Made by a program: the position numbers and the translations under genes | Part shown: piece by piece, positions 16,247 through 36,345 of the stretch | Layout: the number at the start of each line of letters is the position of its first letter | How positions within the stretch are numbered: the stretch's first letter is position 1 | Assembly: GCF_024700885.2 (NCBI RefSeq) | Contig: NZ_CP117016.1 | From: Escherichia coli | Lineage (GTDB): Bacteria > Pseudomonadota > Gammaproteobacteria > Enterobacterales > Enterobacteriaceae | Strand: one strand, 5' to 3' | Length of the DNA stretch: 64,000 nt | The notes under the pieces: generated by a model | What the model was told of the DNA's origin: nothing | The model's input: the letters and a program-made list of their open reading frames with translations, nothing else | Database searches by the model: none

Positions 16247-17203
16247 ATGACAAACTTCACGACCAGTACGCCGCATGACGCATTATTTAAATCCTTTCTC
16301 ACCCACCCTGACACCGCGCGGGATTTTATGGAGATCCACTTACCAATAGATTTACGTGAATTGTGCGATCTCGACAGCTTAAAACTGGAATCCGCCAGCT
16401 TCGTCGATGAAAAATTGCGGGCGCTACACTCCGATATTCTGTGGTCGGTAGAGACCCGTGAAGGTGATGGCTATATCTATGTGGTGATTGAACATCAGAG
16501 CCGTGAGGATATTCATATGGCCTTTCGCCTGATGCGCTATTCCATGGCGGTGATGCAGCGCCATATCGAGCATGATAAACGCCGGCCGCTACCGCTGGTC
16601 ATCCCGATGCTGTTTTATCACGGTAGCCGCAGTCCTTATCCCTGGTCCCTGTGCTGGCTGGACGAATTTGCCGACCCGGCTACCGCACGGAAAGTTTATA
16701 ACGCCGCGTTCCCGCTGGTGGATGTCACTGTCGTGCCAGACGACGAGATTGTGCAGCATCGCAGAGTCGCCCTGTTGGAGTTGATCCAAAAGCATATTCG
16801 CCAGCGCGATCTGATGGGGCTTATCGACCAACTGGTACTATTACTGGTTACAGAGTGTGCTAATGACAGCCAGATAACTGCGCTGTTAAATTACATTTTA
16901 CTGACTGGCGATGAAGCGCGTTTTAAAGAGTTTATCAGCGAACTAACCAGTCGAATGCCACAACAAAGGGAGCGAATAATGACGATTGCAGAGCGAATTC
17001 ATAATGATGGATGGCTGTTGGGAAGGGAGAGGGGGAGGAAAGAAGGGAAAGTAGAAGGGGAACGGAGCCTCCTCCGATTGTTGTTGCAGAATGGGGCAGA
17101 TCCTGAATGGATACAACGATATACCGGACTCTCGGCAGAGCAAATGCAGGCATTAGAGCAGCCCTTGCCTGAAAGCAAGCGCGATCCTTGGATCGAGTAC
17201 TAA
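16247..17203 (+). CDS. rpnD: Recombination-promoting nuclease RpnD (PD-(D/E)XK, YhgA-like), intact 318 aa
   Basis: N-terminal [11 protein letters not shown] motif typical of the Rpn/YhgA family; synteny between mdtM and yjiR. Confidence 0.8.
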
Positions 17204-17213
17204 TCAGAGACTG

Positions 17214-17247
17214 ATGACAAACGCAAAGCAGCCTGATGCGCTACGCT
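17214..17247. repeat. REP element
   Basis: gcctgatgcgctacgcttatcaggtctac, a canonical REP-like palindrome downstream of rpnD. Confidence 0.6.
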
Positions 17248-17445
17248 TATCAGGTCTACATAACCCATTTAATATATTGAACTTTAAAAATTTTGTAGAC
17301 CTGGTAAGGCGTTCACATGGCATCCGGCATGAACGAAGCGCATTTTGCCTAAGCCATGCTGGAACGTGGAGATGACCCTGCAAAGATAAAACGAGTCACA
17401 CGCTATTCGTGAGAGGAAATCAGGGGGCTCGCCACTATTTTGAAT

Positions 17446-18858
17446 TCATTCCATTGCCCGATACACGGCTTCGCCAATTTGCTTCAGTGCTTCGCGATAG
17501 GTTTCGCTGAGCGGCAAAGCGCAGTTGATGCGCAGACAATTACGGTATTTGCCGGAAGCTGAGAAAATCGAGCCTGCTGCCACCTGGATTTTCATGCGGC
17601 ACAGCTGCCGCGCGACGCAGACCATATCGACCTGTTCAGGCAATTCTATCCACAGTAAAAATCCGCCTTTCGGGCGCGTAATACAGATTTCGCAGGGAAA
17701 ATATTCCCGTATCCAGCAGGTATAAAGTGCCAGATTGCGCTGATAGATCTGCCGCATCCGCCGGATATGGCGATGATAGTGACCTTCCAGCACAAACGTT
17801 GCCGCCGCCATTTGCGTGGACGGCACATTAAAGCTGCTGATGGCGTATTTCATATGCATCAGTTTATCGTGATAACGCCCCGGTGCGACCCAACCCACGC
17901 GCAGGCCAGGTGCAATGCTTTTACTGAACGAGCTGCACAGCAGCACTCGCCCGTCGATATCCCAGGAATGAATGGTCCGCGGGCGCGGATACTCCGTTGC
18001 CAGTTCGCCGTAGACATCATCTTCAAAAATCACAATATCATGACGCTGAGCGAGAGAGAGAACGGCCCGTTTGCGCGCGTCCGGCATAATAAATCCCAGC
18101 GGATTATTACAGTTTGGCACCAGAATGATGCCTTTAATCGGCCACTGTTCCAGCGCCAGTTCCAGCGCTTCAACGCTGATGCCTGTTTCTGGATCGGTTG
18201 GGATTTCAATCACTTTCACGCCCATGCCACGCAGCATCTGCATCGAACCGTAATAACAGGGGGATTCGACCGCGACAATATCGCCCGGTTTACACACCGC
18301 CATTAACGCCAGCGACATCGAGTTATGGCAGCCGCTGGTAATGATGATGTCATCGGCGGTGACCACCGAGCCGCTGTCGAGCATCAGGCGGGCAATCTGC
18401 TCTCGCAACACTCGCTGACCGGCTAACAAGTCATAACCGAGAACGGTTTGCAGATTATGCTGCACCACCCGGCTTAGCTCCCGCCACAGCGGTTTCAGGC
18501 TGGGCGTTTCGACATCCGGCGTGCTTTTACTTAACGGAACAATGGAACTGTCGCTATGCGCCTCCAGCATATCCAGCACCTGATCCCACTGGGTAATTTC
18601 CACCGGGCGCTGCACCGGACGCGTCATCGGCGGTACTGGCGGCTGGGCTTTACGTTGTGCGACAAAATAACCCGAACGCGGCTGCGGAGTGATGAGCTTC
18701 ATCGTCTCCAGCGTCTGGTACGCCTGCTGCACGGTGCTGATGCTGACGCCGTGCTCCTGACTTAAGCTGCGCACCGACGGCAATTTCTCCCCGTGACGAT
18801 ACAGCCCTTGCTCAATCCGCTCGGCAAGTAGAGTCGCCAGATGTTGATAACGCGTCAT
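17446..18858 (-). CDS. yjiR: MocR/GntR-family PLP-dependent transcriptional regulator YjiR
   Basis: N-terminal HTH (GEKLPSVRSLSQEHGVSISTVQQAY) fused to an aminotransferase-like domain; 470 aa. Confidence 0.85.
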   Translation of the reverse strand: MTRYQHLATLLAERIEQGLYRHGEKLPSVRSLSQEHGVSISTVQQAYQTLETMKLITPQPRSGYFVAQRKAQPPVPPMTRPVQRPVEITQWDQVLDMLEAHSDSSIVPLSKSTPDVETPSLKPLWRELSRVVQHNLQTVLGYDLLAGQRVLREQIARLMLDSGSVVTADDIIITSGCHNSMSLALMAVCKPGDIVAVESPCYYGSMQMLRGMGVKVIEIPTDPETGISVEALELALEQWPIKGIILVPNCNNPLGFIMPDARKRAVLSLAQRHDIVIFEDDVYGELATEYPRPRTIHSWDIDGRVLLCSSFSKSIAPGLRVGWVAPGRYHDKLMHMKYAISSFNVPSTQMAAATFVLEGHYHRHIRRMRQIYQRNLALYTCWIREYFPCEICITRPKGGFLLWIELPEQVDMVCVARQLCRMKIQVAAGSIFSASGKYRNCLRINCALPLSETYREALKQIGEAVYRAME

Positions 18859-19034
18859 GCTGTGTTCCTTATTTGGACCATACAGAGAGAAAAACCGGTA
18901 CAGATGAGGCTAAAAAACCGGATGCAGATGCTGTTTTAACCTGTCTGTATGTTAAATAAAACTAATATTTGCATCTGTATTGTGAACTGCCAGAAGGCGG
19001 ATGATGAAGCCTCTGAAAGATGAGGAGGCAGCAG

Positions 19035-19199
19035 ATGGAATTTCACGAAAACAAAGCTAAAGCACCGTTTATTGGACTTGTGCAACTCTGGCAGGCAGTG
19101 AGGCGTTGGCGGCGGCAAATGCAGGCCCGGCGGGTGTTACAGCAGATGAGTGATGAGCGGTTGAGGGATATTGGGTTACGCAGGGAGGATGTGGAGTGA
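19035..19199 (+). CDS. yjiS: DUF1127 small protein YjiS (54 aa)
   Basis: Hand-translated ORF MEFHENKAKAPFIGLVQLWQAVRRWRRQMQARRVLQQMSDERLRDIGLRREDVE; below the ORF-track size cut-off. Confidence 0.7.
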   Translation: MEFHENKAKAPFIGLVQLWQAVRRWRRQMQARRVLQQMSDERLRDIGLRREDVE

Positions 19200-19555
19200 A
19201 CTATGGGCGGCGTGTTGGCAAATGCTGCCTGTCTGCATTCAAAATTGCTACAAAATCCAACCATAAAAGTCGTTTACAACATATTTTTCTGATTTACATA
19301 CAGATAATGACCTGAGCTGTCTCACTGGGGGTCATCATCTATGCGTCCGGGGGGCTGTCACAAAATGGAAAAGGAATAGAACAAAATCATCAGCGGTGAA
19401 TAAAGCGATTCGTTTTAGATCACATTAATGAAATTTTTGTATCAAAAATTAGTTATCGCGCTCACAGTTCATAATGAAACAATTCTCTGCAAATAGATAA
19501 CCGAAGCTTCGTTGCTAGTATCAATTCGCTAATTATACACCTGCCAGAGGATACA

Positions 19556-22096
19556 ATGAAAAATAGAAATCGTATGATCGTGAACTGTGTTACTGCTTCC
19601 CTGATGTATTATTGGAGCTTACCTGCACTGGCTGAGCAGTCGTCAAGTGAGATAAAGATTGTTCGCGATGAATACGGCATGCCGCATATTTATGCCAATG
19701 ATACATGGCACCTATTTTATGGCTATGGCTATGTAGTAGCACAAGATCGCCTTTTTCAGATGGAAATGGCACGTCGCAGTACTCAAGGGACTGTCGCGGA
19801 AGTGCTTGGCAAAGATTTTGTGAAATTTGATAAAGATATCCGTCGTAACTACTGGCCGGATGCTATCCGGGCGCAAATTGCTGCCCTTTCCCCAGAGGAT
19901 ATGTCCATTCTGCAAGGCTACGCTGATGGAATGAATGCCTGGATTGATAAGGTAAATACCAATCCAGAGACGCTCTTACCAAAACAGTTTAATACATTTG
20001 GCTTTACTCCTAAGCGCTGGGAACCGTTTGATGTCGCGATGATATTTGTGGGCACCATGGCAAACCGCTTCTCTGATAGCACTAGCGAAATTGATAATCT
20101 GGCACTGCTAACGGCTTTAAAAGATAAATATGGTGTATCACAAGGCATGGCGGTATTTAATCAGTTGAAATGGCTGGTAAACCCATCAGCGCCAACCACT
20201 ATTGCCGTACAAGAGAGTAGCTACCCACTTAAATTTAATCAGCAAAACTCGCAAACAGCAGCTCTGTTGCCACGCTACGATTTACCTGCACCAATGCTTG
20301 ACCGACCAGCAAAAGGGGCGGATGGCGCACTGCTGGCGTTAACAGCAGGGAAGAACCGGGAAACTATTGCTGCACAATTTGCACAGGGTGGTGCCAATGG
20401 TCTGGCGGGGTATCCAACGACCAGCAATATGTGGGTGATCGGCAAAAGCAAAGCCCAGGATGCGAAAGCAATCATGGTAAATGGTCCGCAGTTTGGCTGG
20501 TATGCGCCTGCGTATACTTATGGTATTGGTCTGCACGGTGCTGGTTATGATGTCACTGGCAATACACCATTTGCCTATCCTGGGCTGGTTTTTGGTCATA
20601 ATGGTGTGATTTCCTGGGGATCAACGGCAGGTTTCGGCGATGATGTCGATATTTTTGCTGAACGGCTGTCGGCAGAGAAACCAGGCTACTACTTGCATAA
20701 TGGTAAGTGGGTGAAAATGTTAAGCCGTGAGGAAACCATTACGGTGAAAAATGGTCAGGCAGAGACCTTTACTGTCTGGCGTACGGTGCATGGCAACATT
20801 CTCCAAACTGACCAGACGACACAAACGGCTTACGCTAAATCCCGCGCATGGGATGGTAAAGAGGTGGCGTCTTTGCTGGCCTGGACTCATCAGATGAAGG
20901 CCAAAAATTGGCAGGAGTGGACACAGCAGGCAGCGAAACAAGCACTGACCATCAACTGGTACTATGCTGATGTAAACGGCAATATTGGTTATGTTCATAC
21001 TGGTGCTTATCCAGATCGTCAATCAGGCCATGATCCGCGATTACCCGTTCCTGGTACGGGAAAATGGGACTGGAAAGGGCTATTGCCTTTTGAAATGAAC
21101 CCTAAGGTGTATAACCCCCTGTCGGGATATATTGCTAACTGGAACAATTCTCCCCAAAAAGATTATCCCGCTTCGGATCTGTTTGCCTTTTTGTGGGGGG
21201 GGGCAGATCGCGTTACGGAGATCGACCGACTGCTTGAGCAAAAGCCACGCTTAACTGCTGATCAGGCATGGGATGTTATTCGCCAAACCAGTCGTCAGGA
21301 TCTTAACCTGAGGCTTTTTTTACCTACTCTGCAAGCAGCGACATCTGGTTTGACACAGAGCGATCCGCGCCGTCAGTTGGTGGATACATTAACACGTTGG
21401 GATGGCATCAATTTGCTTAATGATGATGGTAAAACATGGCAGCAGCCAGGCTCTGCCATCCTGAACGTTTGGCTGACCAGTATGTTGAAGCGTACCGTAG
21501 TGGCTGCCGTACCTATGCCATTTGATAAGTGGTACAGCGCCAGTGGCTACGAAACAACCCAGGACGGCCCAACTGGTTCGCTGAATATAAGTGTTGGAGC
21601 AAAAATTTTGTATGAGGCGGTGCAGGGAGACAAATCACCAATCCCACAGGCGGTTGATCTGTTTGCTGGGAAACCACAGCAGGAGGTTGTGTTGGCTGCG
21701 CTGGAAGATACCTGGGAGACTCTTTCCAAACGCTATGGCAATAATGTGAGTAACTGGAAAACACCTGCAATGGCCTTAACGTTCCGGGCAAATAATTTCT
21801 TTGGTGTACCGCAGGCCGCAGCGGAAGAAACGCGTCATCAGGCGGAGTATCAAAACCGTGGAACAGAAAACGATATGATTGTTTTCTCACCAACGACAAG
21901 CGATCGTCCGGTGCTTGCCTGGGATGTGGTCGCACCCGGTCAGAGTGGGTTTATTGCTCCCGATGGAACAGTTGATAAGCACTATGAAGATCAGCTGAAA
22001 ATGTACGAAAATTTTGGTCGTAAGTCGCTCTGGTTAACGAAGCAGGATGTGGAGGCGCATAAGGAGTCGCAGGAAGTGTTGCACGTTCAGAGATAA
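19556..22096 (+). CDS. pac: Penicillin G acylase precursor (846 aa)
   Basis: Signal peptide ([26 protein letters not shown]), length and sequence match my memory of E. coli penicillin G amidase. Confidence 0.9.
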
Positions 22097-22173
22097 TTAA
22101 GCCCGAAAGCCCTCATATTCTGGAGGAATATGAGGGTGATAAAGTCTCAGGTATTGTGATGTTGGAGGGCTGG

Positions 22174-23130
22174 TTACTTTTTGAGTCCCGCAAACGCTGC
22201 CCGAATCTCTTCCTCCGGCAACTGAATCCCGATAAACACCATTGTGCTATGCGGTTTTTCATCGCCCCACGGGCGGTCCCAGTCGGCGCTGTAGAGGCGC
22301 TGGACGCCCTGGAACAGCAGGCGGTTAGGTTCGCCGTCAATCCACAGCATCCCTTTGTAACGCAGCAGTTTATCCGCCGATTCCAGCAGCAGGTTTTCCA
22401 TCACGCGGGAAACTTCGCTGATATCTACCGGGTAATCCAGTTCCACCACAATCGACGAAATATCGTTTTGTTTATCCGCGATAAAGTGGAAACGCGGTTT
22501 GGTACTGACGACGTTCTCTTCCAGCATAAAACCGTTGGTATTGAACAGCAGGGCCAGGTCGATGTCGCCGTGAGTGACGGTGTAGACCGGCGCGCGGGCG
22601 TTGATGCGTGCCAGGCGTTCACGCAGTTTTTCTGCTTCGCCTGCGACGTCGGTTTTAGTCAGCAGAATACGGTCAGCGTAGCCCACCTGGGACTGGGCGA
22701 TGGTGAACTGGTTCATCTGCTCATCGGCATGTACCGCATCCACCAGCGCAATCACGCCGTCCAGCAGGTAGCGCTGGCATAAAATCTCATGGGAGAAAAA
22801 GGTCTGAATAATCGGGCCGGGATCGGCCATGCCGGTGCATTCAATGACCAGACGGTCGAACTGAATATTGCCCTTGTCGAGATTGTCCAGCAGGTCGAGT
22901 AGTGCGTCTTCCAGCTCGTTGGAGCGCGAACAGCAGATGCAGCCGTTGGTCAGCGTTTTGATCTGCGTGGCGCGATCACCAATCAATTGATCATCAACGG
23001 AGACTTCGCCGAATTCGTTTTCAATCACGGCAATCTTGTAGCCGTGTTGTTCGTTAAGAATATGGCGCAGCAGGGTGGTTTTGCCCGCGCCTAAAAAACC
23101 GGTGAGTAGGGTAACTGCAATCGGGTTCAT
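22174..23130 (-). CDS. yjiA: CobW/P47K-family GTPase YjiA
   Basis: Walker A GFLGAGKTT; ORF runs to 23214, but MNPIAVTLL (23130) gives the expected 318 aa. Confidence 0.85.
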   Translation of the reverse strand: MNPIAVTLLTGFLGAGKTTLLRHILNEQHGYKIAVIENEFGEVSVDDQLIGDRATQIKTLTNGCICCSRSNELEDALLDLLDNLDKGNIQFDRLVIECTGMADPGPIIQTFFSHEILCQRYLLDGVIALVDAVHADEQMNQFTIAQSQVGYADRILLTKTDVAGEAEKLRERLARINARAPVYTVTHGDIDLALLFNTNGFMLEENVVSTKPRFHFIADKQNDISSIVVELDYPVDISEVSRVMENLLLESADKLLRYKGMLWIDGEPNRLLFQGVQRLYSADWDRPWGDEKPHSTMVFIGIQLPEEEIRAAFAGLKK

Positions 23131-23140
23131 GCTCTCTCCA

Positions 23141-23344
23141 TTAACAACAGCGCATACCGCCTTTACCATCGCCGCCGTAGCGCGCGTTCTGGCGTTCGCG
23201 GAAGAATTCTTCATAGCTCATGTACGGCTTGTCGGGATGGTTGGTCTTCATATGCTCGACGTAGTTGTCGTAGTCTGGAATGCCAATCAACATCTTCGCC
23301 GCCTGGCCGAGATATTTTTTTGCCTGTCCTAAGTTACCAAACAT
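23141..23344 (-). CDS. yjiX: DUF466 small protein YjiX (67 aa)
   Basis: 67-aa ORF immediately downstream of btsT. Confidence 0.8.
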
Positions 23345-23364
23345 AGTTCACTCTGATAAGAACA

Positions 23365-23384
23365 AAGCCCCGCCGAAGCGGGGC
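23365..23384 (-). terminator. GC-rich hairpin (agccccgccgaagcggggct) between btsT and yjiX; possible terminator or attenuator
   Basis: Perfect stem read directly; a T-rich tract follows on the minus strand. Confidence 0.45.
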
Positions 23385-23393
23385 TAAACACGG

Positions 23394-25544
23394 TTAGTGG
23401 TGCGAAGAGATCTTCACGCCGCCTTCCGGGATTGGAACGTACGGTGTTTCTTTGTCAGTACGTTTGTCGCTGTTACGCACCTTCAGCCAGGTTTTGAAAC
23501 CGTAGAAGATGATGCTGTACACCACAATCAGGAACAGAATACTCAGACCTGCGTTGGTGTAGTTGTTCACAATGATGTGGTTCATGTTGGCAATCTGCTG
23601 CGCCGTCAGGTCAGTACCGTTAGCAATCTTCTCTTTGTACTGGCTTGCCATGTAGAAGAAGCCTTCCATCTGCGGGTTGGTGCTGAACAGTTTCAGGCCC
23701 AGCGCCCAGGTGGTGCAGATAAGCAGCCATACAGCCGGAACAACAGTTACCCAGATGTATTGGGTGCGCTTCATCTTAATCAGCACAACGGTACCCAGTA
23801 CCAGCGCCACGGCTGCCAGCATCTGGTTGGAGATACCGAACAGCGGCCACAGGCTCTTAACGCCGCCCAGCGGATCGACCACGCCCTGATACAGCAGGTA
23901 GCCCCACAGACCCACACAGCCCGCAGTACCGATGATACCAGCAACCAGAGAGTCGGTTTTTTTCAGGAACGGGATGAAGTTACCCAGCAGGTCTTGCAGC
24001 ATAAAGCGGCCAGAACGGGTACCGGCATCCAGCGCGGTCAGGATGAACAGGGCTTCGAACAGAATACCGAAGTGATACCAGAAGCCCATGTCAGCCATCG
24101 GCAGCACTTTGTGGAACACGTGAGCGATACCTACCGCCAGTGTCGGCGCACCACCTGCACGGTTCAGGACAGAAGGCTCACCAATGTCTTTCGCGGTTTG
24201 CAGGATCTGCTCTGGCGAAATCACGAAGCCCCAGGAGCTGACGGTCGCCGCCGCGTGTGCGGTAACGTCTTTCAACTGCGCCATGATGATCGGCGCGTTC
24301 TCGCCACCCATTTCATGCAGGTTAGGCATGGTGATGCCAAGGCCCGCAGGCGGGGTGTTCATCGCGAAGTAAAGACCCGGTTCGATGATGGACGCTGCAA
24401 CCAGCGCCATAATCGCCACGAAGGACTCCATCAGCATTGCGCCGTAGCCAATGAAACGCGCGTCGGTTTCGTTAGCCAGCAGTTTCGGCGTCGTACCGGA
24501 AGAGATCAGTGCGTGGAAGCCAGATACCGCACCACAGGCGATGGTGATGAACAGGAACGGGAACAGAGCGCCTTTCCACAGCGGGCCAGTACCGTCAATG
24601 TACTGGGTCATCGCAGGCATTTTCAGTTCCGGGTTCAGCACCACGATACCCAGCGCCAGGCCGACGATAACACCGATTTTCAGGAAGGTTGCCAGATAGT
24701 CGCGCGGTGCGAGGATCAGCCACACCGGCAGCAGTGCGGAAACAAACGCATAGCCAATCAGCGCGAAGGTAATGGTGGTGTCTTTAAAGGTCAGTGCCGG
24801 ACCCCAGTACGGATCGTGAGCAATCACGCCACCGAAGTAGATAGAGGCAACCAGCAGCACGATACCAATGACAGAGACTTCACCCACACGCCCCGGACGG
24901 ATAAAGCGCATGTAGATACCCATAAACAGCGCAATTGGTACGGTTGAGCAAACGGTGAAGACACCCCACGGACTTTCGGCCAGGGCTTTAACCACAATCA
25001 GCGCCAGAACGGCGAGGATGATGATCATGATTAAGAAACAGCCAAACAGCGCGATAGTCCCCGGTACTGGTCCCATCTCTTCTTTGATCATCTCACCGAG
25101 AGATGCGCCGTTACGGCGAGAGGAGATAAACAGCACCATAAAGTCCTGAACCGCACCGGCCAGTACTACCCCCGCCAGCAGCCACAGCGTGCCAGGCAGG
25201 TAGCCCATCTGCGCGGCGAGCACCGGACCCACCAGCGGACCAGCACCGGCGATAGCGGCGAAGTGGTGACCAAACAACACGTAACGGTTGGTCGGAACGT
25301 AGTTCAGACCGTCGTTGTTAATAACCGCAGGCGTCGCGCGCGTGGGGTCGAGTTTCATCACCTTCTGGGCGATGTACAGACTGTAGTAGCGATACGCCAC
25401 CAGATACACCGACACAGAGGCGACCACGATCCACAGGGCGCTGACGTGCTCCCCCCGACGTAATGCAACTACCGCGAGGCAGAATGCACCGATGATTCCG
25501 AGAATCACCCAGGGTATGTGCTTGAATAGTTTTTTCGTATCCAT
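23394..25544 (-). CDS. btsT: Pyruvate/proton symporter BtsT (CstA family)
   Basis: Polytopic membrane protein; start at MDTKKLFKHIPW gives 716 aa; synteny. Confidence 0.85.
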   Translation of the reverse strand: MDTKKLFKHIPWVILGIIGAFCLAVVALRRGEHVSALWIVVASVSVYLVAYRYYSLYIAQKVMKLDPTRATPAVINNDGLNYVPTNRYVLFGHHFAAIAGAGPLVGPVLAAQMGYLPGTLWLLAGVVLAGAVQDFMVLFISSRRNGASLGEMIKEEMGPVPGTIALFGCFLIMIIILAVLALIVVKALAESPWGVFTVCSTVPIALFMGIYMRFIRPGRVGEVSVIGIVLLVASIYFGGVIAHDPYWGPALTFKDTTITFALIGYAFVSALLPVWLILAPRDYLATFLKIGVIVGLALGIVVLNPELKMPAMTQYIDGTGPLWKGALFPFLFITIACGAVSGFHALISSGTTPKLLANETDARFIGYGAMLMESFVAIMALVAASIIEPGLYFAMNTPPAGLGITMPNLHEMGGENAPIIMAQLKDVTAHAAATVSSWGFVISPEQILQTAKDIGEPSVLNRAGGAPTLAVGIAHVFHKVLPMADMGFWYHFGILFEALFILTALDAGTRSGRFMLQDLLGNFIPFLKKTDSLVAGIIGTAGCVGLWGYLLYQGVVDPLGGVKSLWPLFGISNQMLAAVALVLGTVVLIKMKRTQYIWVTVVPAVWLLICTTWALGLKLFSTNPQMEGFFYMASQYKEKIANGTDLTAQQIANMNHIIVNNYTNAGLSILFLIVVYSIIFYGFKTWLKVRNSDKRTDKETPYVPIPEGGVKISSHH

Positions 25545-25936
25545 AGTAAAACCTGGCATTTTACTCGTCGTCTTTTGGCTTACAGGTGCGGCAGCTGCGT
25601 TCGTTCACCTCTGTCACTTACTGTTGTAAGCTCCCGGGGATTCACTCACTTGCTGCCTTCCTGCAAACCAAAATCCATAGAGTAATTTGTTAATCATAGG
25701 CCGAAGCCGTTCTAGGTTTGCGTTGCGTTTGAGGAGGTAAATTGACCGCTATCCTGCAGTGATGTTGCCAGAGATACGCGCGCGTAAAGTAAGGTAAATA
25801 ACTGAGTGGTTATTTTAGGGATGTAAGCGGTCAGGAATGGCGGTGAGCGGTTGGGCAAGAATTATTCATCGGGTGGATATGTGATTGAGATCACAATAAA
25901 AATGCCCCTTCGACGAATGCGTGAAGGGGCTGGAGC

Positions 25937-26449
25937 TTAAATCGCAGCTTCCATTTCCAGCATCACCGGATGGAAACGGCGTTTAAAGTAGATAAGTCCG
26001 TGACCTTCTGCACTGAGGATGATGTTTTTAATCTCCACCAGATACACCAGATGTGTGCCAATTGCCTGCACATCGCGGATCTCACCTTCAAGACTGGCTA
26101 GCGAACCTTTTAGCACCGGCTGCGCCAGCGGACCTTTTTGCCAGCATGAGAGGCTAAAACGCTCTTCCATCGCCATGCCTGTCATGCCTGCGAAGTGGCG
26201 TGCCATCAGTTCCTGCTCATGGTTGAGGACGTTGACGCACAACTTGCCGTTGCCCTGAAAAACCGGGTTCATCGCACTGTTGGCGTTAATGCACACCATC
26301 AGCGACGGTGGTGTATCCGTGACCGAGCAGACGGCCGTTGCCGTAATCCCGCATTGTCCGGCGTCGCCCTCGGTGGTGATAATATTTACCGCTGCCGACA
26401 GGCTGGCCATCGCGTCACGAAAGCGCAGGCGTTGTTCATCTAATTGCAT
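25937..26449 (-). CDS. hpaC: 4-hydroxyphenylacetate 3-monooxygenase, flavin reductase component
   Basis: 170-aa protein downstream of hpaB; matches my recollection of HpaC. Confidence 0.85.
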   Translation of the reverse strand: MQLDEQRLRFRDAMASLSAAVNIITTEGDAGQCGITATAVCSVTDTPPSLMVCINANSAMNPVFQGNGKLCVNVLNHEQELMARHFAGMTGMAMEERFSLSCWQKGPLAQPVLKGSLASLEGEIRDVQAIGTHLVYLVEIKNIILSAEGHGLIYFKRRFHPVMLEMEAAI

Positions 26450-26466
26450 CTTAACCTCCTGCTGCG

Positions 26467-28029
26467 TTATTTCAGCAGCTTATCCAGCATGTTGATATCG
26501 TCGTTGTTGTGCAGGTGCGGCACAGTCCAGCCGTTCTGGTCGTATTCCGACAGGCAGCGATCAACCATCGCCATCATCTTGTCCATATTGCCGGAGCTTT
26601 GTGCCTGGCGCAGACACTGCAGGCGAATCTCATCCTGGCTACCGGAGTAGTTGATTTCATACAGTTCGTGACGACCACCAAATTCGCTGCCAATAGCATC
26701 CCACATCAGTTTGAGGATCTTGATGCGCTGGACGTGATCCATACCATTCGAACCGCGCACATACTTCGCCAGATACTGGTCGATCTGCGGATTGTTCAGG
26801 TCACGGGCACTGGAAGGAAGATAGATCAGGCCACTGGTAACGTTGCGTTCGATAATGTTTTTGATCTTCGCGTAGGCCATTGGTGCCAGTACGCGATAGG
26901 TTTGCAGTGCGGCATGATCCGGTAAATAAGCCCCGTTGACCCACGGCGTCGCTTCTGAGCACATCGAGTCACTCAATGCCCAGAAGGTGTTGCGCCACGC
27001 CACCACTTCACCGAGATCGGCCTGCACGCCCCGGAACTCCAGGGTGCCGGTACATTCAAGTGATTTTTTCAGCAGTGCCGTGATGAAATCGAGTTTCACT
27101 GCCAGGCGCACACAGGCTTGCAGCGGATACATACGGGCGAAACCGCCTTCCATCGTCCAGCGACGGCAGCGATCGAAATCGCGGTAGATCAACACGTTTT
27201 CCCACGGGATCAGTACGTTATCCATCACCAGAATCGCATCGTTCTCATCGAAGCGGCTGGAGAGCGGGTAGTCGTACGGCGAGCCGGTAGCACCCGCGAC
27301 CATCTCATAAGAGGCGCGGGAGATTAATTTCACGCCATCGGCATCCATTGGCGCAACGAACATCAGTGCGAAGTCCGGGTTTTCGCCCATCACTTGTGCC
27401 GAGCCGAAGCCAATCATGTTGTAGTGAGTCAGCGCCGAGTTGGTGGCAACCACTTTCGCACCGCTGACGATAATCCCGGCGTCAGTCTCTTTTTCCAGCT
27501 TGATGTAAACGTCTTTTACTTTATCGGTCGGCAAATGACGATCGATCGGTGGGTTAACAATCGCGTGGTTAAAGTAGAGGCCAGTTTCCTGAATACGGGT
27601 GTACCAGTTACGGGCGTTCTGCTCGAACTGACCGTAAAAGCCCGGATTCGCGCCCAGTGCGCAACCGAAAGCGGCTTTGTAGTCTGGGGTGCGGCCCATC
27701 CAGCCATAGCTCAGGCGTGACCACTCAGCGATGGCGTCGCGTTGCTGGCGCAGGTCGTCGGCACTTTTCGCCACGCGGAAGAATTTATGGGTATAGCCGC
27801 CGCTGCCGGTGTCGGTGTTCCAACACAGAGAGTCCTGCATCTCCGGTTTGTGCAGCGCGTCGTACAGTTGGGCAACAGACGCTGCCGCATTACGAAATGC
27901 CGGATGAGTGGTGACGTCTTTCACTCGCTCGCCATAGATATAGATCTCGCGACCATCCTGCAGGCTTTTCAGATACTCTTCCCCGGTGAACGGACGTTGG
28001 GTACTGGCGCGGAAATCTTCTGGTTTCAT
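26467..28029 (-). CDS. hpaB: 4-hydroxyphenylacetate 3-monooxygenase, oxygenase component
   Basis: 520 aa; recognised as HpaB. Confidence 0.9.
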   Translation of the reverse strand: MKPEDFRASTQRPFTGEEYLKSLQDGREIYIYGERVKDVTTHPAFRNAAASVAQLYDALHKPEMQDSLCWNTDTGSGGYTHKFFRVAKSADDLRQQRDAIAEWSRLSYGWMGRTPDYKAAFGCALGANPGFYGQFEQNARNWYTRIQETGLYFNHAIVNPPIDRHLPTDKVKDVYIKLEKETDAGIIVSGAKVVATNSALTHYNMIGFGSAQVMGENPDFALMFVAPMDADGVKLISRASYEMVAGATGSPYDYPLSSRFDENDAILVMDNVLIPWENVLIYRDFDRCRRWTMEGGFARMYPLQACVRLAVKLDFITALLKKSLECTGTLEFRGVQADLGEVVAWRNTFWALSDSMCSEATPWVNGAYLPDHAALQTYRVLAPMAYAKIKNIIERNVTSGLIYLPSSARDLNNPQIDQYLAKYVRGSNGMDHVQRIKILKLMWDAIGSEFGGRHELYEINYSGSQDEIRLQCLRQAQSSGNMDKMMAMVDRCLSEYDQNGWTVPHLHNNDDINMLDKLLK

Positions 28030-28279
28030 GTCGACCTCTACAGTATTAATCGGAATACGATTGTTAATTTTGTGTTTTGTTTTTGTTATTCAATTGAAGC
28101 TTGCAGGGGCGATTACGGGAAGACACTTTTGGGACAATGGCTGGTACTTTTCAGGTCGGGTACGGTTTTGTGATCGAGGTCGCTTTTCGCGATTTTTAAC
28201 GTTACTAAATCCCCTTGCTCCAGGCGGAGAAAGGGGAATAGCAGGTGGTGCCTGGTTTCCCGTTAAGGCTAAGGGATTT

Positions 28280-29170
28280 TCACGTCACAGGTACTTTTTT
28301 GGCACGATAAGCACTGGGCGAGCAACCGACTAAACGATTAAAAAAGCGCGCAAAATAAGCCGGATCCTTAAAACCGAGTTGCCAGGCAATATTGTTCACG
28401 GCGTTATCAGAAAACAGCAGCAGCCGCTTGGCTTCTCGTAGCTGCCTGTCGAAAATCAACCGTTTTGGCGGACGGTTGGCAAAGCGGCGGCAGATGTCCG
28501 TGAGGCGTGATTCGGTGATATGCAGTTCGTTAGCGTAATCCGGTACTGTCCAGTGCTGATGAAAATGGCTTTCAATCAGCATATTAAAACGCTGGAACAG
28601 TTTTAATTCTCCGCGCATTCCGCTGGCGGCATGGTCGTCGAGTTTTGCGTTACGCAGCAGTAGGGTGAACACTGCCTGTGCCAGTAACGTCAGGGTGTGT
28701 TCCCGTCCAGGCAGTTGTTCCACCGATTCCCGCTCTATCAGTTGCCAATAGTGTTCCAGCGCCGCCAGTTCGTCGGGTTTATCTGCCAGTGACAGGCAAA
28801 TCCCCGGCAGGCCGAAGGTTTCCCGAGTGCCCGGATAAAGAACTTCCAGCAGGGGCCAGATCAGATCTTCCCGTACCGTCAACACATGACCGTCGGCGTC
28901 AGACTCCGTAATAAACGCATGAGGTACTGACGGCGGCGTCAGGACAAACAGGGGCGCTTCCACCGAGTAGCGATGATCGTCAAGCTGTAGCTCAATCTGT
29001 CCGCTATTGAGGAAATGCATCTGAAAGTACTGTTCGTGGCGATGTGGCAGCATATGGCGGCCAAAAAATGCCGCCATGCGGGCGAATGACTGATAATGCA
29101 CATCGTCCGTGCCCAGGCTTTCATCGTACTCTTTGCTGATATCAATATTGGCAATCTGACGGTCACACAT
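28280..29170 (-). CDS. hpaA: AraC-family activator of hpaBC
   Basis: C-terminal AraC-type HTH; cluster position. Confidence 0.85.
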   Translation of the reverse strand: MCDRQIANIDISKEYDESLGTDDVHYQSFARMAAFFGRHMLPHRHEQYFQMHFLNSGQIELQLDDHRYSVEAPLFVLTPPSVPHAFITESDADGHVLTVREDLIWPLLEVLYPGTRETFGLPGICLSLADKPDELAALEHYWQLIERESVEQLPGREHTLTLLAQAVFTLLLRNAKLDDHAASGMRGELKLFQRFNMLIESHFHQHWTVPDYANELHITESRLTDICRRFANRPPKRLIFDRQLREAKRLLLFSDNAVNNIAWQLGFKDPAYFARFFNRLVGCSPSAYRAKKVPVT

Positions 29171-29179
29171 CGTCGTTCC

Positions 29180-30556
29180 TTACGGGGTCGCTCGCGGACG
29201 GGAGGACTGCATTGGAATCGCCCAGATAATCCCCGCACCAATCACCAGCAGCGCGGCAACAAACCACAATCCACTGTTAAAGCTGCCGGTCAGATCTTTC
29301 AACCAGCCGATCATAAACGGACTTAACGCTGAACCAATGTTGCCTGTGGCGTTGATCACCGCAATACCGATCGCTCTTGCCCGCAGGCTGATGGACTGAT
29401 CCGGTGTTGTCCAGAAAATCGCCATTGCGCTGAATGATCCGGTCGAAGCCATAATGATCCCCAGCATCTGGAGCATGTTGTGATCAGTTGCCGAAGCCAG
29501 TAACCAACCAGCGGCAGCGAACAAATAAGGAAGGGCGGTGTGATGCCTTCGTTCCTGGCGGCGATCTGAGTGACGGCTCCAGTAGATCATCCCGAGAATG
29601 GTACAAATCTGCGGTACGGCGGCCAGCAGGCCGATGGTGATATTACTGCTGCCCTGATTAAAGCTTTGCAGGATCTGCGGTGTCCAGATGCTGATCGCAC
29701 TAAGTGTGTTGGTCAGGCAGAAATACGCCAGGGTATACATCATCACCACCGGAGTGAAGATCTCCCGCCACATGCTGCGTTGTTGCATGGCATGGTGGCT
29801 GATGGCTCCCTCAGGCTGAACCAGCGTCAGACGATCGTTATCCATCATCTCTTGCAGGCATTTTTTGTCTTCTTTCGTCAGCCACTTAGCTTTGTCCGGT
29901 GAGTCATCAAGCCAGAACCACACCATGACGCCGAGTAATACCGACGGGAAGCCTTCCAGCAAAAACAGCCACTGCCAGCCTTTTAATGCCATTACGCCAT
30001 CCAGCGACAAAATGTAGCCGGAAACGATAGAGCCCAGCGCTGTCGTTACCGGCATTGCCACCATAAACAAGGCGTTGGCACGGGCGCGGAAATAGGCCGG
30101 AAACCAGAAGGTTAAATACAGCAGAATGCCAGGCAGAAAGCCGGCTTCGGTAATGCCAACCAGTATACGCAGTACGTACAAGCTGGTGGGGCCAGTGGCA
30201 AACATGGTAGCAGTAGAGGCGATGCCCCAAAGCACCATGATGGTGGCGATCCAGCGCCGTGCACCGACAATACTCAGCATAATGTTGCTGGGAATGCCGA
30301 AGATGACATAAGCGGCGTAGAACAGGGTGGTGGCGAGGCCAAACATGGTGGCGCTCAGACCGAGGTCGCGTCCCATCGTGAGTCCGGCAAAGCCGATGTT
30401 GATGCGATCAAGGAACGAGAAGATAAACAGCACGAACAGAAAGACGATCAGGCGGCGAAACAGCTTCTTAATAACCGCCTGTTGTCCGGTAGTCAGCGCT
30501 TTATGCTGATTCGCCGGATCGATACTCTCCGGTATGGCAGGTGAGGTGTCGCTCAT
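29180..30556 (-). CDS. hpaX: 4-hydroxyphenylacetate MFS transporter
   Basis: 458-aa MFS protein; cluster position. Confidence 0.85.
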   Translation of the reverse strand: MSDTSPAIPESIDPANQHKALTTGQQAVIKKLFRRLIVFLFVLFIFSFLDRINIGFAGLTMGRDLGLSATMFGLATTLFYAAYVIFGIPSNIMLSIVGARRWIATIMVLWGIASTATMFATGPTSLYVLRILVGITEAGFLPGILLYLTFWFPAYFRARANALFMVAMPVTTALGSIVSGYILSLDGVMALKGWQWLFLLEGFPSVLLGVMVWFWLDDSPDKAKWLTKEDKKCLQEMMDNDRLTLVQPEGAISHHAMQQRSMWREIFTPVVMMYTLAYFCLTNTLSAISIWTPQILQSFNQGSSNITIGLLAAVPQICTILGMIYWSRHSDRRQERRHHTALPYLFAAAGWLLASATDHNMLQMLGIIMASTGSFSAMAIFWTTPDQSISLRARAIGIAVINATGNIGSALSPFMIGWLKDLTGSFNSGLWFVAALLVIGAGIIWAIPMQSSRPRATP

Positions 30557-30600
30557 TTTTCTTCCTCTAATGGGATTTTTGTAGGGTACGACAAGGTTTA

Positions 30601-30670
30601 TGGCGGATGCGGCGTAAACGCCTTATCCGGCTACAGTTTGGTACTGCTGTAAGCCGGATAAGCGCATTCA
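30601..30670. repeat. REP/BIME-like palindromic elements between hpaX and hpaI
   Basis: ggcggatgcggcgtaaacgccttatccggc and gccggataagcgc motifs read directly. Confidence 0.55.
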
Positions 30671-30673
30671 GCA

Positions 30674-31462
30674 TTAATACACGCCGGGCTTAACGGTCGT
30701 GGCCTGCGCGCCAAACCGTGCTGCCAACGCTTCGGCGGCGCGGGCGAGCAGGGTGGTGTCAACGCCGACGGCGACAAACAGCGCGCCCAGTTCCAGATAG
30801 CGTTTTGCCAGTTGCTCATTGGCGATCAGGATCCCCGGCGCTTTGCCCGCTTCGCGGATCTGCACGATCGCCTGCTCAATGGCGACCTGTACTTCCGGGT
30901 GCTGTGGATTACCGGCATAACCCATATCGGCGCTCAGATCCGCCGGGCCGATAAACACGCCGTCGACCCCTTCCACGTCCAGAATCTGCGGTAAGTTCTT
31001 CATTGCCTCACGCGTTTCGATCTGCACCAGCACGCACATTTGATCGTTGGCTTTTTGCAGGTAATCAGGAATGCGATTCCAGCGCGAGGCGCGAGCCAGC
31101 GCACTGCCCACACCGCGAATACCGGCGGGGGGATAACGGGTGGCGCGTACCGCTTCACGGGCTTCGTCGGCGTTTTGTACCATCGGCACCAGTAAGGTTT
31201 GTGTGCCGACGTCCAGCAGTTGTTTGATTTGCACCGGATCGTTCCACGACGGACGTACTACCGGCTGGCTGGGGTAGGGCGCAATCGCCTGTAGCTGGGT
31301 GAGCACAGTTTGCACGTTATTCGGCGCGTGCTCACCGTCGATCAATAACCAGTCGAATCCTGCTCCGGCCAGTAACTCTGCGCTGTAGCTGCTACTTAGC
31401 CCCAGCCATAATCCGATCTGCGGGCGGCCTGCTTTCAGCGCCGCTTTAAAACTGTTTTCCAT
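30674..31462 (-). CDS. hpaI: 2,4-dihydroxyhept-2-ene-1,7-dioate aldolase
   Basis: ORF extends to 31603; start placed at [20 protein letters not shown] to match the expected size. Confidence 0.85.
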
Positions 31463-31472
31463 CGTTCTCTCC

Positions 31473-32276
31473 TTAAACAAAGCGGCAGCTAATGGAGCCC
31501 ATGTTGCCGTAATCGACGTGGAAGGTGTCGCCCTTACGCGCCGGAACCGGGCGGGTAAACGAACCGCCGAGAATGATTTGCCCGGCTTCCAGTTGTACGT
31601 CATACGGTGCGAGTTTGTTCGCCAGCCAGGCCACGCCGTTTGCCGGGTGATTCAGCACGCCAGCGGCGACGCCGGTTTCTTCAATCACGCCATTGCGATA
31701 CATCAGGGCGGAGATCCAACGTAGATCCAACTCATCGGGCTTAATGGGACGACCACCGAGGATCACCCCGGCATTGGCGGCGTTATCAGAAATGGTGTCG
31801 AACACTTTACGCGGGCGCTGGGTTTCCGGATCGATGTTGTGGCAGCGAGCGTCGATCAGCTCCAGCGCCGGGATCACATAGTCCGTGGCGTTGTAGACGT
31901 CGAACAGCGTGCAGTTTGGCCCACGCAGCGGTTTTGCCAGCACGAAAGCCAGCTCCACTTCAATGCGCGGCACGATAAAGCGATCGGTCGGGATATCGCT
32001 GCCATCGTGGAAGAACATGTCATCCAGCAGGGCACCATAATCCGGCTCGCTGATTTGCGAGCTGGCCTGCATCGCTTTCGAGGTCAGGCCGATTTTGTGG
32101 CCTTTCAGCGTACGGCCTTCGGCAATTTTCAGGCGGACCCATTCGCGCTGTACGGCGTAGGCATCTTCGATGGTGATCTCCGGGTAATCCAGCGAGATCG
32201 CGCGGATCTGTTCACGCTGTTTTTCTGCCTGATCCAGACGCTGGGCGATCAGGGTGTGGGTGTGTTTATCGAACAT
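31473..32276 (-). CDS. hpaH: 2-oxo-hept-3-ene-1,7-dioate hydratase
   Basis: ORF to 32294; start at [15 protein letters not shown]; cluster position. Confidence 0.85.
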
Positions 32277-32343
32277 GGCGATATCCTGTGGCATTGCCGG
32301 ATGCGGCTGCGCCTTATCATCCGGCCTGGAAGCTGGTGCAAAT

Positions 32344-32724
32344 TTATTTAAACAACGCGTGTACGTTGTTCTGTTTGAAATTCAACGTCGGGTGCAGCTC
32401 TGCAATCTCAAATGAAAGCGCCAGGTAACGGCTCTCCATCAGTGAGGCGAAGTGCGTTTTAATCAGATCAAACAGCATTTCGCCCACTTTCTGACGGCTT
32501 TCCAGACTGCGCCCGCTGCCGATTTTTAGCGTCATATGCACAAAGGCGTAATCGTGCTTGCCATCAGCCATTTGCCAGGTATCGATCCAGTGTGCCCGGC
32601 TACGTATTCCCCCAAGCGGAAAAATCCCCGTCGCCGCCAGTGCGGTGTTAACACTGGCAAACAGCTCAGGTAAGCGGGCTTCTTGACGAATATTTTCAGT
32701 ACATTCCACGATAAAGTGCGGCAT
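32344..32724 (-). CDS. hpaF: 5-carboxymethyl-2-hydroxymuconate isomerase
   Basis: 126 aa beginning [12 protein letters not shown]; cluster position. Confidence 0.85.
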
Positions 32725-32733
32725 GGTGGTTCC

Positions 32734-33585
32734 TTACGCGGGAAGCGGGAAAACAGCGTTAACCTGACCAGTACCGGAGCTTGGGAACAGCTCGGTAATA
32801 AACTCCACCTTGCCGTCGTATTTATCCCAGCCGAGCATCCCCAGCAGCATCACCGTGTCGTGCATATTGCCTTCGCCGTAGCAGTAGTCGGCGTACTCCG
32901 GCAGCATATTGCAGAACTCTTTGAACTGGCCTTCGCGCCACAGCTTCACCACGCGCTCGTCCATCTGGCGGTCGAACTCGCGGGTGTAGCTGTTCATCCC
33001 TTCTTCTGCACGCTGATCGTCAATAAAGCGGTGCGATAACGAACCGCTGGCAAGGACCGCCACGGTACCGTCGTACTGTTCGATCGCTTTCAGAATCGCT
33101 TCGCCCAGCTTGCGGCTGTCGGCAAAATCGTGAACCGTGCAGAAAGCCGAAATGGAGACCACTTTGAAGTGCTTGTCTTCATTCATGTAGCGCATTGGCA
33201 CCAGCGTGCCGTATTCCAGTTTCAGGCTGGGAATATTGTGCGCTTTTGCCCGCACGCCGAGTTTTAAGGCTTCATCGGCAATAAGCTGCCCCAACTCCGG
33301 GTTGCCCTCGTAGTTGTAGGTCATGTCACGAATAAAATGCGGCAGCTCGTTACTGGTGTAGACGCCTTCAAAATGGTCTGCACAGTTGATGTGATAAGCA
33401 CTGTTGACCAGCCAGTGGGTATCGAAAACGATAATGGTATCGACGCCCATTTCCCGGCAACGCTTGCTGATCTCTTTATGCCCGTCGATCGCGCCCTGGC
33501 GGCAACCGTGGTTTTTCCCTGGCAGTTCAGAGAGATACATCGACGGTACGTGCGTGATCTTGGCGGCTAACGCTAACTTACCCAT
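32734..33585 (-). CDS. hpaD: 3,4-dihydroxyphenylacetate 2,3-dioxygenase
   Basis: 283 aa; cluster position. Confidence 0.9.
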   Translation of the reverse strand: MGKLALAAKITHVPSMYLSELPGKNHGCRQGAIDGHKEISKRCREMGVDTIIVFDTHWLVNSAYHINCADHFEGVYTSNELPHFIRDMTYNYEGNPELGQLIADEALKLGVRAKAHNIPSLKLEYGTLVPMRYMNEDKHFKVVSISAFCTVHDFADSRKLGEAILKAIEQYDGTVAVLASGSLSHRFIDDQRAEEGMNSYTREFDRQMDERVVKLWREGQFKEFCNMLPEYADYCYGEGNMHDTVMLLGMLGWDKYDGKVEFITELFPSSGTGQVNAVFPLPA

Positions 33586-33586
33586 A

Positions 33587-35053
33587 TCAGACTCCCCATT
33601 TCGGAATTGGATGGTCGCCCATGGAAATGCAGACGTTCTTCATTTCCGCGAACACTTCGAAGCTGTACTCACCGCCTTCACGCCCGGTGCCGGAGGCTTT
33701 TACGCCGCCAAACGGCTGGCGCAGGTCGCGCACGTTCTGGGTGTTGACGAACACCATGCCTGCTTCAATGCCACGCGCCAGGCGTAACACTTTGCTGACA
33801 TCCTGCGTCCAGATGTACGATGCCAGGCCGTACTCCACGTCGTTTGCCAGGCGTAAGCCTTCGGCTTCGTCTTTAAACGGCAGCAGGCAGGCGACCGGCC
33901 CGAAAATCTCTTCCTGGGCGACGCGCATACGGTTATCTACGTCTGCCAGCACGGTTGGGCGCAGGAAGTTGCCGCCTTTCAGATGTGCAGGCAGGTCAGA
34001 CGGTTTATCCGGGCCGCCCGCCAGCAGGGTTGCGCCTTCTTCAATGCCGAGACGGATATAGCCAGAGACTTTTTCCCAGTGCTGCTGGCTGATAAGCGCC
34101 CCAACCTGGGTATTCGGATCGTTCGGATCGCCCACGCGCAGACGGTTGGCGCGTTCGGCAAAGCGTTTAACGAATTCCGGGTAGATGCTTTGCTGAATAA
34201 AGATGCGCGAACCGGCGGTGCAGCGCTCGCCGTTGATCGAGAAGATGGTGAACAGGGCAGCGTCCAGCGCGCGTTCAATATCGGCATCTTCAAAAATCAG
34301 CACCGGCGATTTACCGCCCAGTTCCATGGAGTATTTTTTCAGCCCGGCGTTTTTCATGATGTTGCGCCCGGTGGCCGTACCGCCGGTGAACGACACGGCA
34401 CGTACGTCATGATGACGAACCAGCGCATCGCCTGCGGTTGCGCCGTAGCCCTGTACCACGTTCAGCACGCCCGCCGGAATACCGGCTTCCAGCGCCAGCT
34501 CACCCAGGCGGTCAGCGGTCAGCGGGGAGAGTTCCGACATTTTCAACACCGCGGTATTGCCCAGCGCCAGACACGGCGCGACCTTCCATGTGGCGGTCAT
34601 AAACGGCACGTTCCACGGCGATACCAGCGCACAAACGCCTACCGGTTGCACCAGCGTGTAGTTGAGCATCTTGTCGTCAACCGGATAGGTCTTGCCGTTC
34701 ATCTGCTGGCAGACTTCCGCGAAAAATTCAAAGTTGTGAGAAGCGCGTGGGATCAACACATTTTTGGTCTGATGGATTGGCAGGCCCGTGTCAGCGGTTT
34801 CCATCGCGGCGATCTCAGGCACGTTCTGGTCGATCAGATCGCCCAGACGGCGCATCAGGCGCGCACGCTCTTTCATCGGCAGATTGGCCCATTTCGGGAA
34901 CGCCTCTTTCGCTGCCGCTACCGCCTGATTGATCTCCGCTTCACCGCCAGAGGCCACATCCGCCAGCACTTCACCCGTTGCCGGATTGGTGGTCTGGAAG
35001 TAGTCGTTACCTGCAACATTTTTGCCGTTGATCCAATGATTTACTTTTTTCAT
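33587..35053 (-). CDS. hpaE: 5-carboxymethyl-2-hydroxymuconate semialdehyde dehydrogenase
   Basis: 488-aa aldehyde dehydrogenase (ELGGKSP, catalytic-Cys motif region); cluster position. Confidence 0.9.
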   Translation of the reverse strand: MKKVNHWINGKNVAGNDYFQTTNPATGEVLADVASGGEAEINQAVAAAKEAFPKWANLPMKERARLMRRLGDLIDQNVPEIAAMETADTGLPIHQTKNVLIPRASHNFEFFAEVCQQMNGKTYPVDDKMLNYTLVQPVGVCALVSPWNVPFMTATWKVAPCLALGNTAVLKMSELSPLTADRLGELALEAGIPAGVLNVVQGYGATAGDALVRHHDVRAVSFTGGTATGRNIMKNAGLKKYSMELGGKSPVLIFEDADIERALDAALFTIFSINGERCTAGSRIFIQQSIYPEFVKRFAERANRLRVGDPNDPNTQVGALISQQHWEKVSGYIRLGIEEGATLLAGGPDKPSDLPAHLKGGNFLRPTVLADVDNRMRVAQEEIFGPVACLLPFKDEAEGLRLANDVEYGLASYIWTQDVSKVLRLARGIEAGMVFVNTQNVRDLRQPFGGVKASGTGREGGEYSFEVFAEMKNVCISMGDHPIPKWGV

Positions 35054-36339: not shown

Positions 36340-36345
36340 TACCAC

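Follow-up and report, generated by a model that had tools for sequence, protein, structure and literature searches.

The immigration control region (ICR) of Escherichia coli is known as a variable core set between the framework genes yjiPRS and yjiAXY, with frequent homologous exchange (PMC4498929). In K-12 MG1655, the interval between yjiS and yjiA is occupied by yjiT, yjiV', mcrC, mcrB, symE, symR, hsdS, hsdM, hsdR, and mrr. Cargo other than defence genes has also been described: a 2025 review (PMC12707154) includes a "penicillinase" and an aldehyde dehydrogenase, and Archer et al. 2011 (PMC3032704) reported that in E. coli W the gene pac replaces the hsd-mcr-mrr cluster. The pac-in-ICR arrangement has thus been on record since that 2011 paper, and the present analysis is an accurate rediscovery of it. 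To this we add genome counts, exact breakpoints, a trough of diversity, and synteny across genera, which leave the overall picture unchanged.

We analyzed a 64,000-nucleotide stretch of E. coli DNA (contig NZ_CP117016.1; hereafter, the window), in which a sequence-only reading had placed penicillin G acylase at the position of the K-12 restriction cluster. The features of the locus are given below by coordinates and strand.

16247-17203, plus strand: yjiP/rpnD, intact Rpn-family nuclease gene (NCBIfam RpnA/Rpn family match), left framework gene
17446-18858, minus strand: yjiR, MocR-like PLP-dependent regulator/aminotransferase, left framework gene
19035-19199, plus strand: yjiS, DUF1127 protein of 54 aa (Pfam DUF1127), left slot edge
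19200-19405, no strand: AT-rich spacer of the pac cassette, found in pac-positive genomes only
19406-19555, plus strand: pac regulatory region with ribosome-binding site, conserved across genera
19556-22096, plus strand: pac, penicillin G acylase precursor of 846 aa
22110-22136, no strand: inverted repeat between the convergent genes pac and yjiA, perfect over 11 bp with a 5-nt loop
22174-23130, minus strand: yjiA, COG0523 GTPase (NCBIfam PRK11537, 682 bits), right slot edge
23141-25544, minus strand: yjiX and btsT (yjiY), right framework genes
25937-37057, no strand assigned: hpa cluster for 4-hydroxyphenylacetate catabolism, as annotated in a genome identical at this locus

By BLAST, the left stretch of similarity between the window and K-12 reaches position 19199 and the right one starts at 22187; with the thousands of complete E. 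coli genomes that lack pac, these positions are 19199 and 22174. Because similarity breaks off at 19199 and restarts at 22174, the interval 19200-22173 is exactly the variable segment, and its edges are the stop codons of yjiS on the left and yjiA on the right. Compared with the pac-less genomes, the sequence is unrelated within these edges and conserved beyond them. The bordering genes are yjiP-yjiR-yjiS on the left and yjiA-yjiX-yjiY (btsT) on the right, the framework by which the ICR is defined in PMC4498929. The hypervariable slot proposed in the sequence-only reading is thereby delimited. On the left, positions 17052-19199 share 95.9% DNA identity with K-12, and rpnD, annotated as a pseudogene in K-12, is intact in the window.

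The window and the K-12 ICR are alike in being chromosomal slots with the same framework genes and with breakpoints where yjiS and yjiA end. However, the variable slot of MG1655 spans 16 kb and holds restriction and toxin-antitoxin genes, whereas that of the window spans 2,974 bp with a single metabolic gene, and the two interiors have no detectable sequence in common. Searches by tblastn (E ≤ 1e-3) found no homologue of YjiT, McrB, McrC, SymE, HsdS, HsdM, HsdR, or Mrr in the 64 kb. Since the pac cassette extends from the yjiS stop codon all the way to that of yjiA, the restriction genes are absent at this locus, in line with what had been stated from the sequence. The position given there for the K-12 cluster, between yjiS and yjiA, also agrees with the MG1655 annotation, although the genes yjiT and the yjiV pseudogene had been left out; in the alignment, K-12 has no pac in this interval.

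The only gene between yjiS and yjiA is pac, as had been claimed, and this held to the base: 19200-22173 contains one long open reading frame (19556-22096, plus strand, 846 aa), and the remaining listed frames inside the cassette are at most 140 aa and unannotated in RefSeq genomes. The product matches Pfam Penicil_amidase (PF01804) over residues 33-834 with 462.8 bits (cut-off 21.3); NCBIfam has no dedicated penicillin G acylase model, and its PvdQ match is weak and far under the cut-off. The protein aligns end to end with chains of known structure from E. coli penicillin G acylase and shows the layout of the precursor, with signal peptide 1-26, alpha subunit 27-235, spacer 236-289, and beta subunit 290-846. 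The 1E3A precursor chains align to residues 27-286 and 287-846, and the beta subunit differs from 1GK9_B at 2 of 557 residues. Ser290 (...PTT|SNMWVIG...) corresponds to residue 1 of 1GK9_B, the N-terminal nucleophile of the beta subunit. With the E. coli W enzyme, 843 of 846 residues are identical (99.6%, three amino acid substitutions), so hydrolysis of penicillin G and other phenylacetyl amides is predicted from the identity to this industrial enzyme. These matches bear out the presence of a metabolic gene in place of the restriction cluster. In the cell, the product would act as a periplasmic Ntn-hydrolase that frees phenylacetate or hydroxyphenylacetate from amides and esters, a physiological role that we infer.

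The closest described locus is that of E. coli W (ATCC 9637/ATCC 11105), in which pac lies at the same site and the genes follow the same order (rpn-yjiR-yjiS-pac-yjiA-yjiX-btsT-hpa cluster-tsr), as the comparison suggested by the sequence-only reading confirmed. The cassette DNA of the two strains is about 99.5% identical, while the flanks differ by 2 to 4%. In the spacer, the window has a 6-bp insertion (19363-19368) and a 1-bp deletion (19354) relative to E. coli W. Further left, the window carries iatD and a pentapeptide-repeat gene, both of which E. coli W lacks.

We may describe the 2,974-bp cassette as an AT-rich spacer of about 200 bp, a conserved regulatory region of about 150 bp, pac, and a 77-bp tail that contains a hairpin. 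The upstream region had been called AT rich, and 19200-19555 indeed has 38.8% GC against 49.6% for the whole window. Neither the left spacer (19200-19405) nor the right spacer (22097-22173) matched K-12, other genera (including Kluyvera for the left spacer), or any other part of the window; the DNA resembling that of Kluyvera and other genera spans only 19399/19407-22096. By blastn-short and tblastx, neither spacer gave an E value better than 0.05 to 0.4 against the K-12 ICR genes or against the AraC, LysE, aldehyde dehydrogenase, and YfaZ genes of Kluyvera, and remnants of these were rejected. A structured RNA in 19200-19410 was also rejected (fold z-scores of +0.55 and +0.40, with no credible Rfam match), as was a small gene, the frames there being just 20 to 39 aa and none credible. 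A BLAST alignment to Silvania spanned the pac-yjiA spacer, but MAFFT shows no real similarity, and common ancestry of this spacer was discarded.

In the roughly 150 bp upstream of pac, a seven-sequence alignment covering 7 genera shows the invariant blocks GATTC, TCACA, CTCACAGTTC, and GCTAGTAT..ATACACCTGC.AGAGGATACAATG. Control of the pac promoter by PaaX and cAMP-CRP is described in the passage of PMC9493321 that cites Galan 2004 and Kim 2004. At the other end, the fold of region 22090-22180 has an energy of -29.2 kcal/mol (z -2.78), and from its sequence the hairpin at 22110-22136 is probably the shared transcript end of pac and yjiA, though it has no T-run. A canonical intrinsic terminator after pac was rejected, since without a T-run the hairpin was not called in the terminator scan.

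The cassette is present in 1,074 of 5,426 complete E. coli genomes, about one in five, and 1,037 of these 1,074 are at least 99% identical to the window. In 1,068 genomes, yjiR-yjiS-pac-yjiA-btsT is contiguous over 7 kb, a measure in which an insert of more than about 4 kb beside pac would split the match; pac is accordingly the sole occupant in about 1,068, and the pac cassette and restriction cassettes thus act as alternative alleles that exclude each other. The cassette boundaries are the same in about 1,070 genomes of varied serotypes and hosts. The gene is not always intact: three of the five relatives sampled have a frameshift in it, and in O111 strains IS1203 interrupts it. For some lineages, this speaks against the enzyme being under strong selection.

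The hpa pathway begins 3.8 kb from pac, is missing from K-12, and comprises hpaC, B, A, X, I, H, an isomerase gene, D, E, G, and R. Requiring at least 80% coverage of a query running from pac through hpaCB, we found hpaCB in 1,071 of the 1,074 pac-positive genomes (99.7%), compared with 2,071 of all 5,426 (38%). This co-occurrence fits an acylase that scavenges phenylacetyl-type compounds, and 4-hydroxyphenylacetate freed by the enzyme could feed the nearby pathway; it could also stem from physical linkage and population structure rather than from selection for a shared function. Given the predicted acylase substrates and the neighbouring hpa pathway, the cargo of this slot would be metabolic rather than defensive: the pac allele sits in an ICR slot and yet is no defence cassette.

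To assess variation along the locus, we aligned seven pac-positive genomes: the window, E. coli W, 042, RM9872, O91 RM7190, Z1323CEC0019, and CI5. The mean pairwise difference is 1.95% in yjiR, 2.11% in the yjiR-yjiS region, 0.30% in the region upstream of pac, 0.52% in the pac coding sequence, and 1.92% in yjiA. In 200-bp windows, this difference falls abruptly at the left junction, from 2.38% to 0.39%. Within 150 nt to either side of a junction, there are 12 against 1 segregating sites across the left one and 2 against 9 across the right. High flank diversity at this locus has other known causes, so the low ratio of cassette to flank diversity is in itself no proof of transfer; nevertheless, a young allele in diverse flanks is the expected product of cassette exchange through recombination in the framework genes. 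Cassette exchange is what we infer from the sequences of these seven genomes, compared in pairs and without a phylogeny. Most likely, the cassette would transfer whole between E. coli lineages, with crossovers in yjiPRS on the left and yjiAXY on the right, and an incoming cassette would displace the prior occupant with no need of transposition or site-specific integration. We consider the interval to be the pac allele of the ICR slot, a metabolic cargo most likely moved as a unit by recombination in its flanks, and we put the probability of this reading at about 0.88.

The slot is not confined to E. coli. In a species-level scan, pac orthologues show 80 to 87% amino acid identity. In six Kluyvera species (loci L003-L006, L012, and L013), they are flanked by yjiR/yjiS and yjiA-yjiX-btsT, and in Lelliottia and Silvania pac adjoins yjiA-yjiX-btsT, with yjiR and yjiS not found in the 8 kb upstream. 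Leclercia has a candidate pac-like match at the expected place, and in Buttiauxella pac is located elsewhere. The Kluyvera, Lelliottia, and Silvania loci resemble ours in having pac in the yjiS-to-yjiA slot together with the common upstream region of about 150 bp, but the Kluyvera-type loci add genes for a LysE-type exporter, an AraC regulator, an aldehyde dehydrogenase, and YfaZ, and the spacers are unrelated. Base composition also separates them: pac has 58% GC in these loci, similar to the hosts, and 48% in E. coli, where its GC3 is 0.457 against 0.63 to 0.69 for the neighbouring genes, while Kluyvera pac has the composition of its host.

A wider reading, possible in our view and held only tentatively, is that the yjiS-yjiA slot is by nature no defence island but a site of exchange across genera, where restriction modules alternate with a metabolic module of the type seen in Kluyvera, Lelliottia, and Silvania (pac with or without aldehyde dehydrogenase, AraC, LysE, and YfaZ). 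The E. coli pac cassette would then be a compositionally foreign, low-diversity import that came through the flanks from an unsampled enterobacterial lineage and was retained with hpa as a functional unit. As to the source, the proportion of synonymous differences (pS) between E. coli and Kluyvera is 0.72 for pac, which is saturated, and 0.40 to 0.65 for the flanks. Since pac has diverged from Kluyvera at least as far as the flanks have, no recent import from Kluyvera, Lelliottia, or Silvania took place. We favour an origin outside E. coli, in which the cassette was taken up from an unsampled lineage and then spread through the species, and treat ancient polymorphism as a minority alternative.

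That alternative deserves consideration, although we regard it as rather unlikely. It holds that pac and its regulatory region are the older, native occupant of the slot across genera, that the restriction clusters came later, and that the allele persists as an ancient polymorphism in about 20% of E. coli. The orthologues in the same slot of Kluyvera and beside yjiA-yjiX-btsT in Lelliottia and Silvania speak for it, as do the 150-bp upstream region conserved across genera and a pac divergence from Kluyvera as deep as that of the flanks or deeper. However, the GC3 of E. coli pac is atypical where that of Kluyvera pac is host-like, the saturated pS of pac exceeds that of the flanks, both spacers (19200-19405 and 22097-22173) are without likeness in other genera, and the species-level scan returned no representative of any other Escherichia species. 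An old balanced allele also predicts the opposite of the diversity of E. coli pac, which is about fourfold below that of its flanks.

Returning to the exchange of a pac allele through its flanks, the signatures of other routes are missing. No insertion sequence, integrase, tRNA, or meaningful flanking repeat was found at the cassette, and by transposase or integrase, terminal or direct repeats, and a tRNA target the interval does not qualify as a mobile element. The remnants of flanking repeats that the sequence-only reading proposed to look for in 19200-19555 and 22097-22173 were not found. Repeats or target duplications at the junctions occur at chance level only; for example, the 11-mer AGGATGTGGAG is present at 19186 and 22044, and about 1.5 such matches are expected by chance in 3.6 kb. 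As for a plasmid vehicle, the only near-identical records labelled as plasmids are 0.4 to 4.8 Mb long and evidently chromosomal, and this candidate was set aside. It is thus very improbable that a mobile element, or an illegitimate deletion plus insertion, placed pac here and destroyed the restriction cluster in this lineage. In favour of such an event, the AT-rich 200-bp spacer and the atypical GC3 do suggest foreign DNA, and 2 kb to the left is an intact gene for an Rpn-family nuclease. Against it, the locus lacks terminal repeats, target duplications, a transposase, an integrase, and a tRNA; it retains no piece of a K-12 cluster gene; the boundaries recur across diverse serotypes and hosts; and YjiP was not found to direct replacement to the ICR (PMC4498929). 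Least probable of all is a role of pac in defence or competition, such as quenching of acyl-homoserine lactones, which would explain its residence in a defence island and is in keeping with the defence genes that otherwise occupy the slot and with the degradation of these lactones by Kluyvera penicillin G acylase reported in a reference listed in PMC5474475, but which is at odds with the lack of any PADLOC match (for the acylase, YjiS, YjiA, or Rpn), with the frequent pseudogenisation of pac, and with the tight hpa linkage and the PaaX/CRP regulation described in that part of PMC9493321, both of which point to aromatic-acid scavenging.

Absence of the K-12 restriction systems at this locus does not necessarily equal a defenceless strain. 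Positions 56620-58752 of the window match the Borvo defence protein BovA (E 1e-241). Over the parts compared (1-25000 and 36569-64000), strain MLI114 matches the window at 100% identity, and its neighbouring island beyond fim and nan encodes a phosphorothioate-dependent restriction endonuclease and a helicase/methyltransferase/SNF2 cluster. The Borvo gene adjoins a prophage integrase.

For the biology of E. coli, the locus is a clean and quantified example of a defence-island slot with a non-defence allele in about 20% of the species, a point that had already been published. The strain bears an industrially important penicillin G acylase beside the hpa pathway, and at the usual locus it is without the K-12-type EcoKI, McrBC, and Mrr barriers, which bears on its transformability and DNA uptake.

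The pac copy of the window is intact. Among five sampled pac-carrying genomes, three (042, O91 RM7190 and Z1323CEC0019) have the gene annotated as frameshifted, and these apparent frameshifts may stem from sequencing error. The 042 and O91 RM7190 copies share an additional G at window-equivalent position 21194, and the Z1323CEC0019 copy lacks one nucleotide at window-equivalent 21566 and has six inserted at 19717; in O111 strains, IS1203 lies inside pac. Alignment with six other pac-carrying genomes revealed that the spacer upstream of pac in the window lacks one nucleotide at 19354 and contains six extra ones (AAATGG) at 19363-19368.

Three PLSDB "plasmid" records of 0.4-4.8 Mb carry the gene (NZ_OL790696.1, CP061270.1 and NZ_AP023206.1), and they look like chromosomal sequence entered as plasmids. 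In NZ_CM135829.1, labelled E. coli DH5alpha, pac adjoins yjiA; one would not expect this in a K-12 derivative, and it suggests a wrongly labelled strain.

Beyond pac, the following features of the window were considered:

575-5815, minus strand, inverse autotransporter iatD, 1746 aa
8381-10657, minus strand, pentapeptide-repeat protein, 758 aa
16247-17203, plus strand, Rpn-family nuclease yjiP/rpnD, 318 aa, intact
25937-37057, complete hpa (4-hydroxyphenylacetate) catabolic cluster, between btsT and tsr
55269-56486, plus strand, tyrosine integrase
56620-58752, plus strand, 710-aa CHAT-domain protein matching BovA (PADLOC Borvo defence)

Unlike the window, E. coli W lacks both iatD and the pentapeptide-repeat gene at the corresponding places. 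The pentapeptide-repeat region shows just 90-95% identity between the window and TUM14759, and PADLOC returned no match for the 758-aa protein. The yjiP/rpnD gene is whole in the window, whereas K-12 has only a pseudogene; PMC4498929 reports that this gene stimulates RecA-independent recombination.

Upstream of btsT, the window has 127 nt more than K-12 (25560-25686). The minus-strand core of this insertion, GTGAATCCCCGGGAGCTTACAACAGTAAGTGACAGAGGTG, resembles an ERIC/IRU repeat; it shows 86% similarity to a copy that K-12 has between hsdM and hsdR (18139-18211 of the MG1655 stretch, L001), and Rfam gave a weak V_AS5 match for it. K-12 also lacks the hpa cluster; of 5426 E. coli genomes, 2071 have this cluster, and it occurs in nearly all of those with pac (1071/1074).

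About 20-30 kb left of the window start, the MLI114 genome, which is 100% identical to the window over the parts compared, holds a neighbouring island (19412-30363 of its stretch, L025) with a gene for a phosphorothioated-DNA-binding restriction endonuclease and a cluster of DEAD/DEAH helicase, DNA methyltransferase and SNF2 genes. Next to this island is a CP4-57-like element, which carries genes for antirestriction and toxin-antitoxin functions.

At the right end of the window, the CHAT-domain protein matches Borvo BovA in PADLOC (802 bits, E 1e-241). Its gene follows the tyrosine integrase and precedes prophage-like genes, named yfdPQR and ymfKTL in the MLI114 annotation, which run to about 64000. 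In TUM14759, yjjG is directly followed by prfC, whereas in the window the integrase, the BovA-like gene and the prophage-like genes lie beyond yjjG. The BovA-like gene is a prophage-borne defence gene in the same window as pac.
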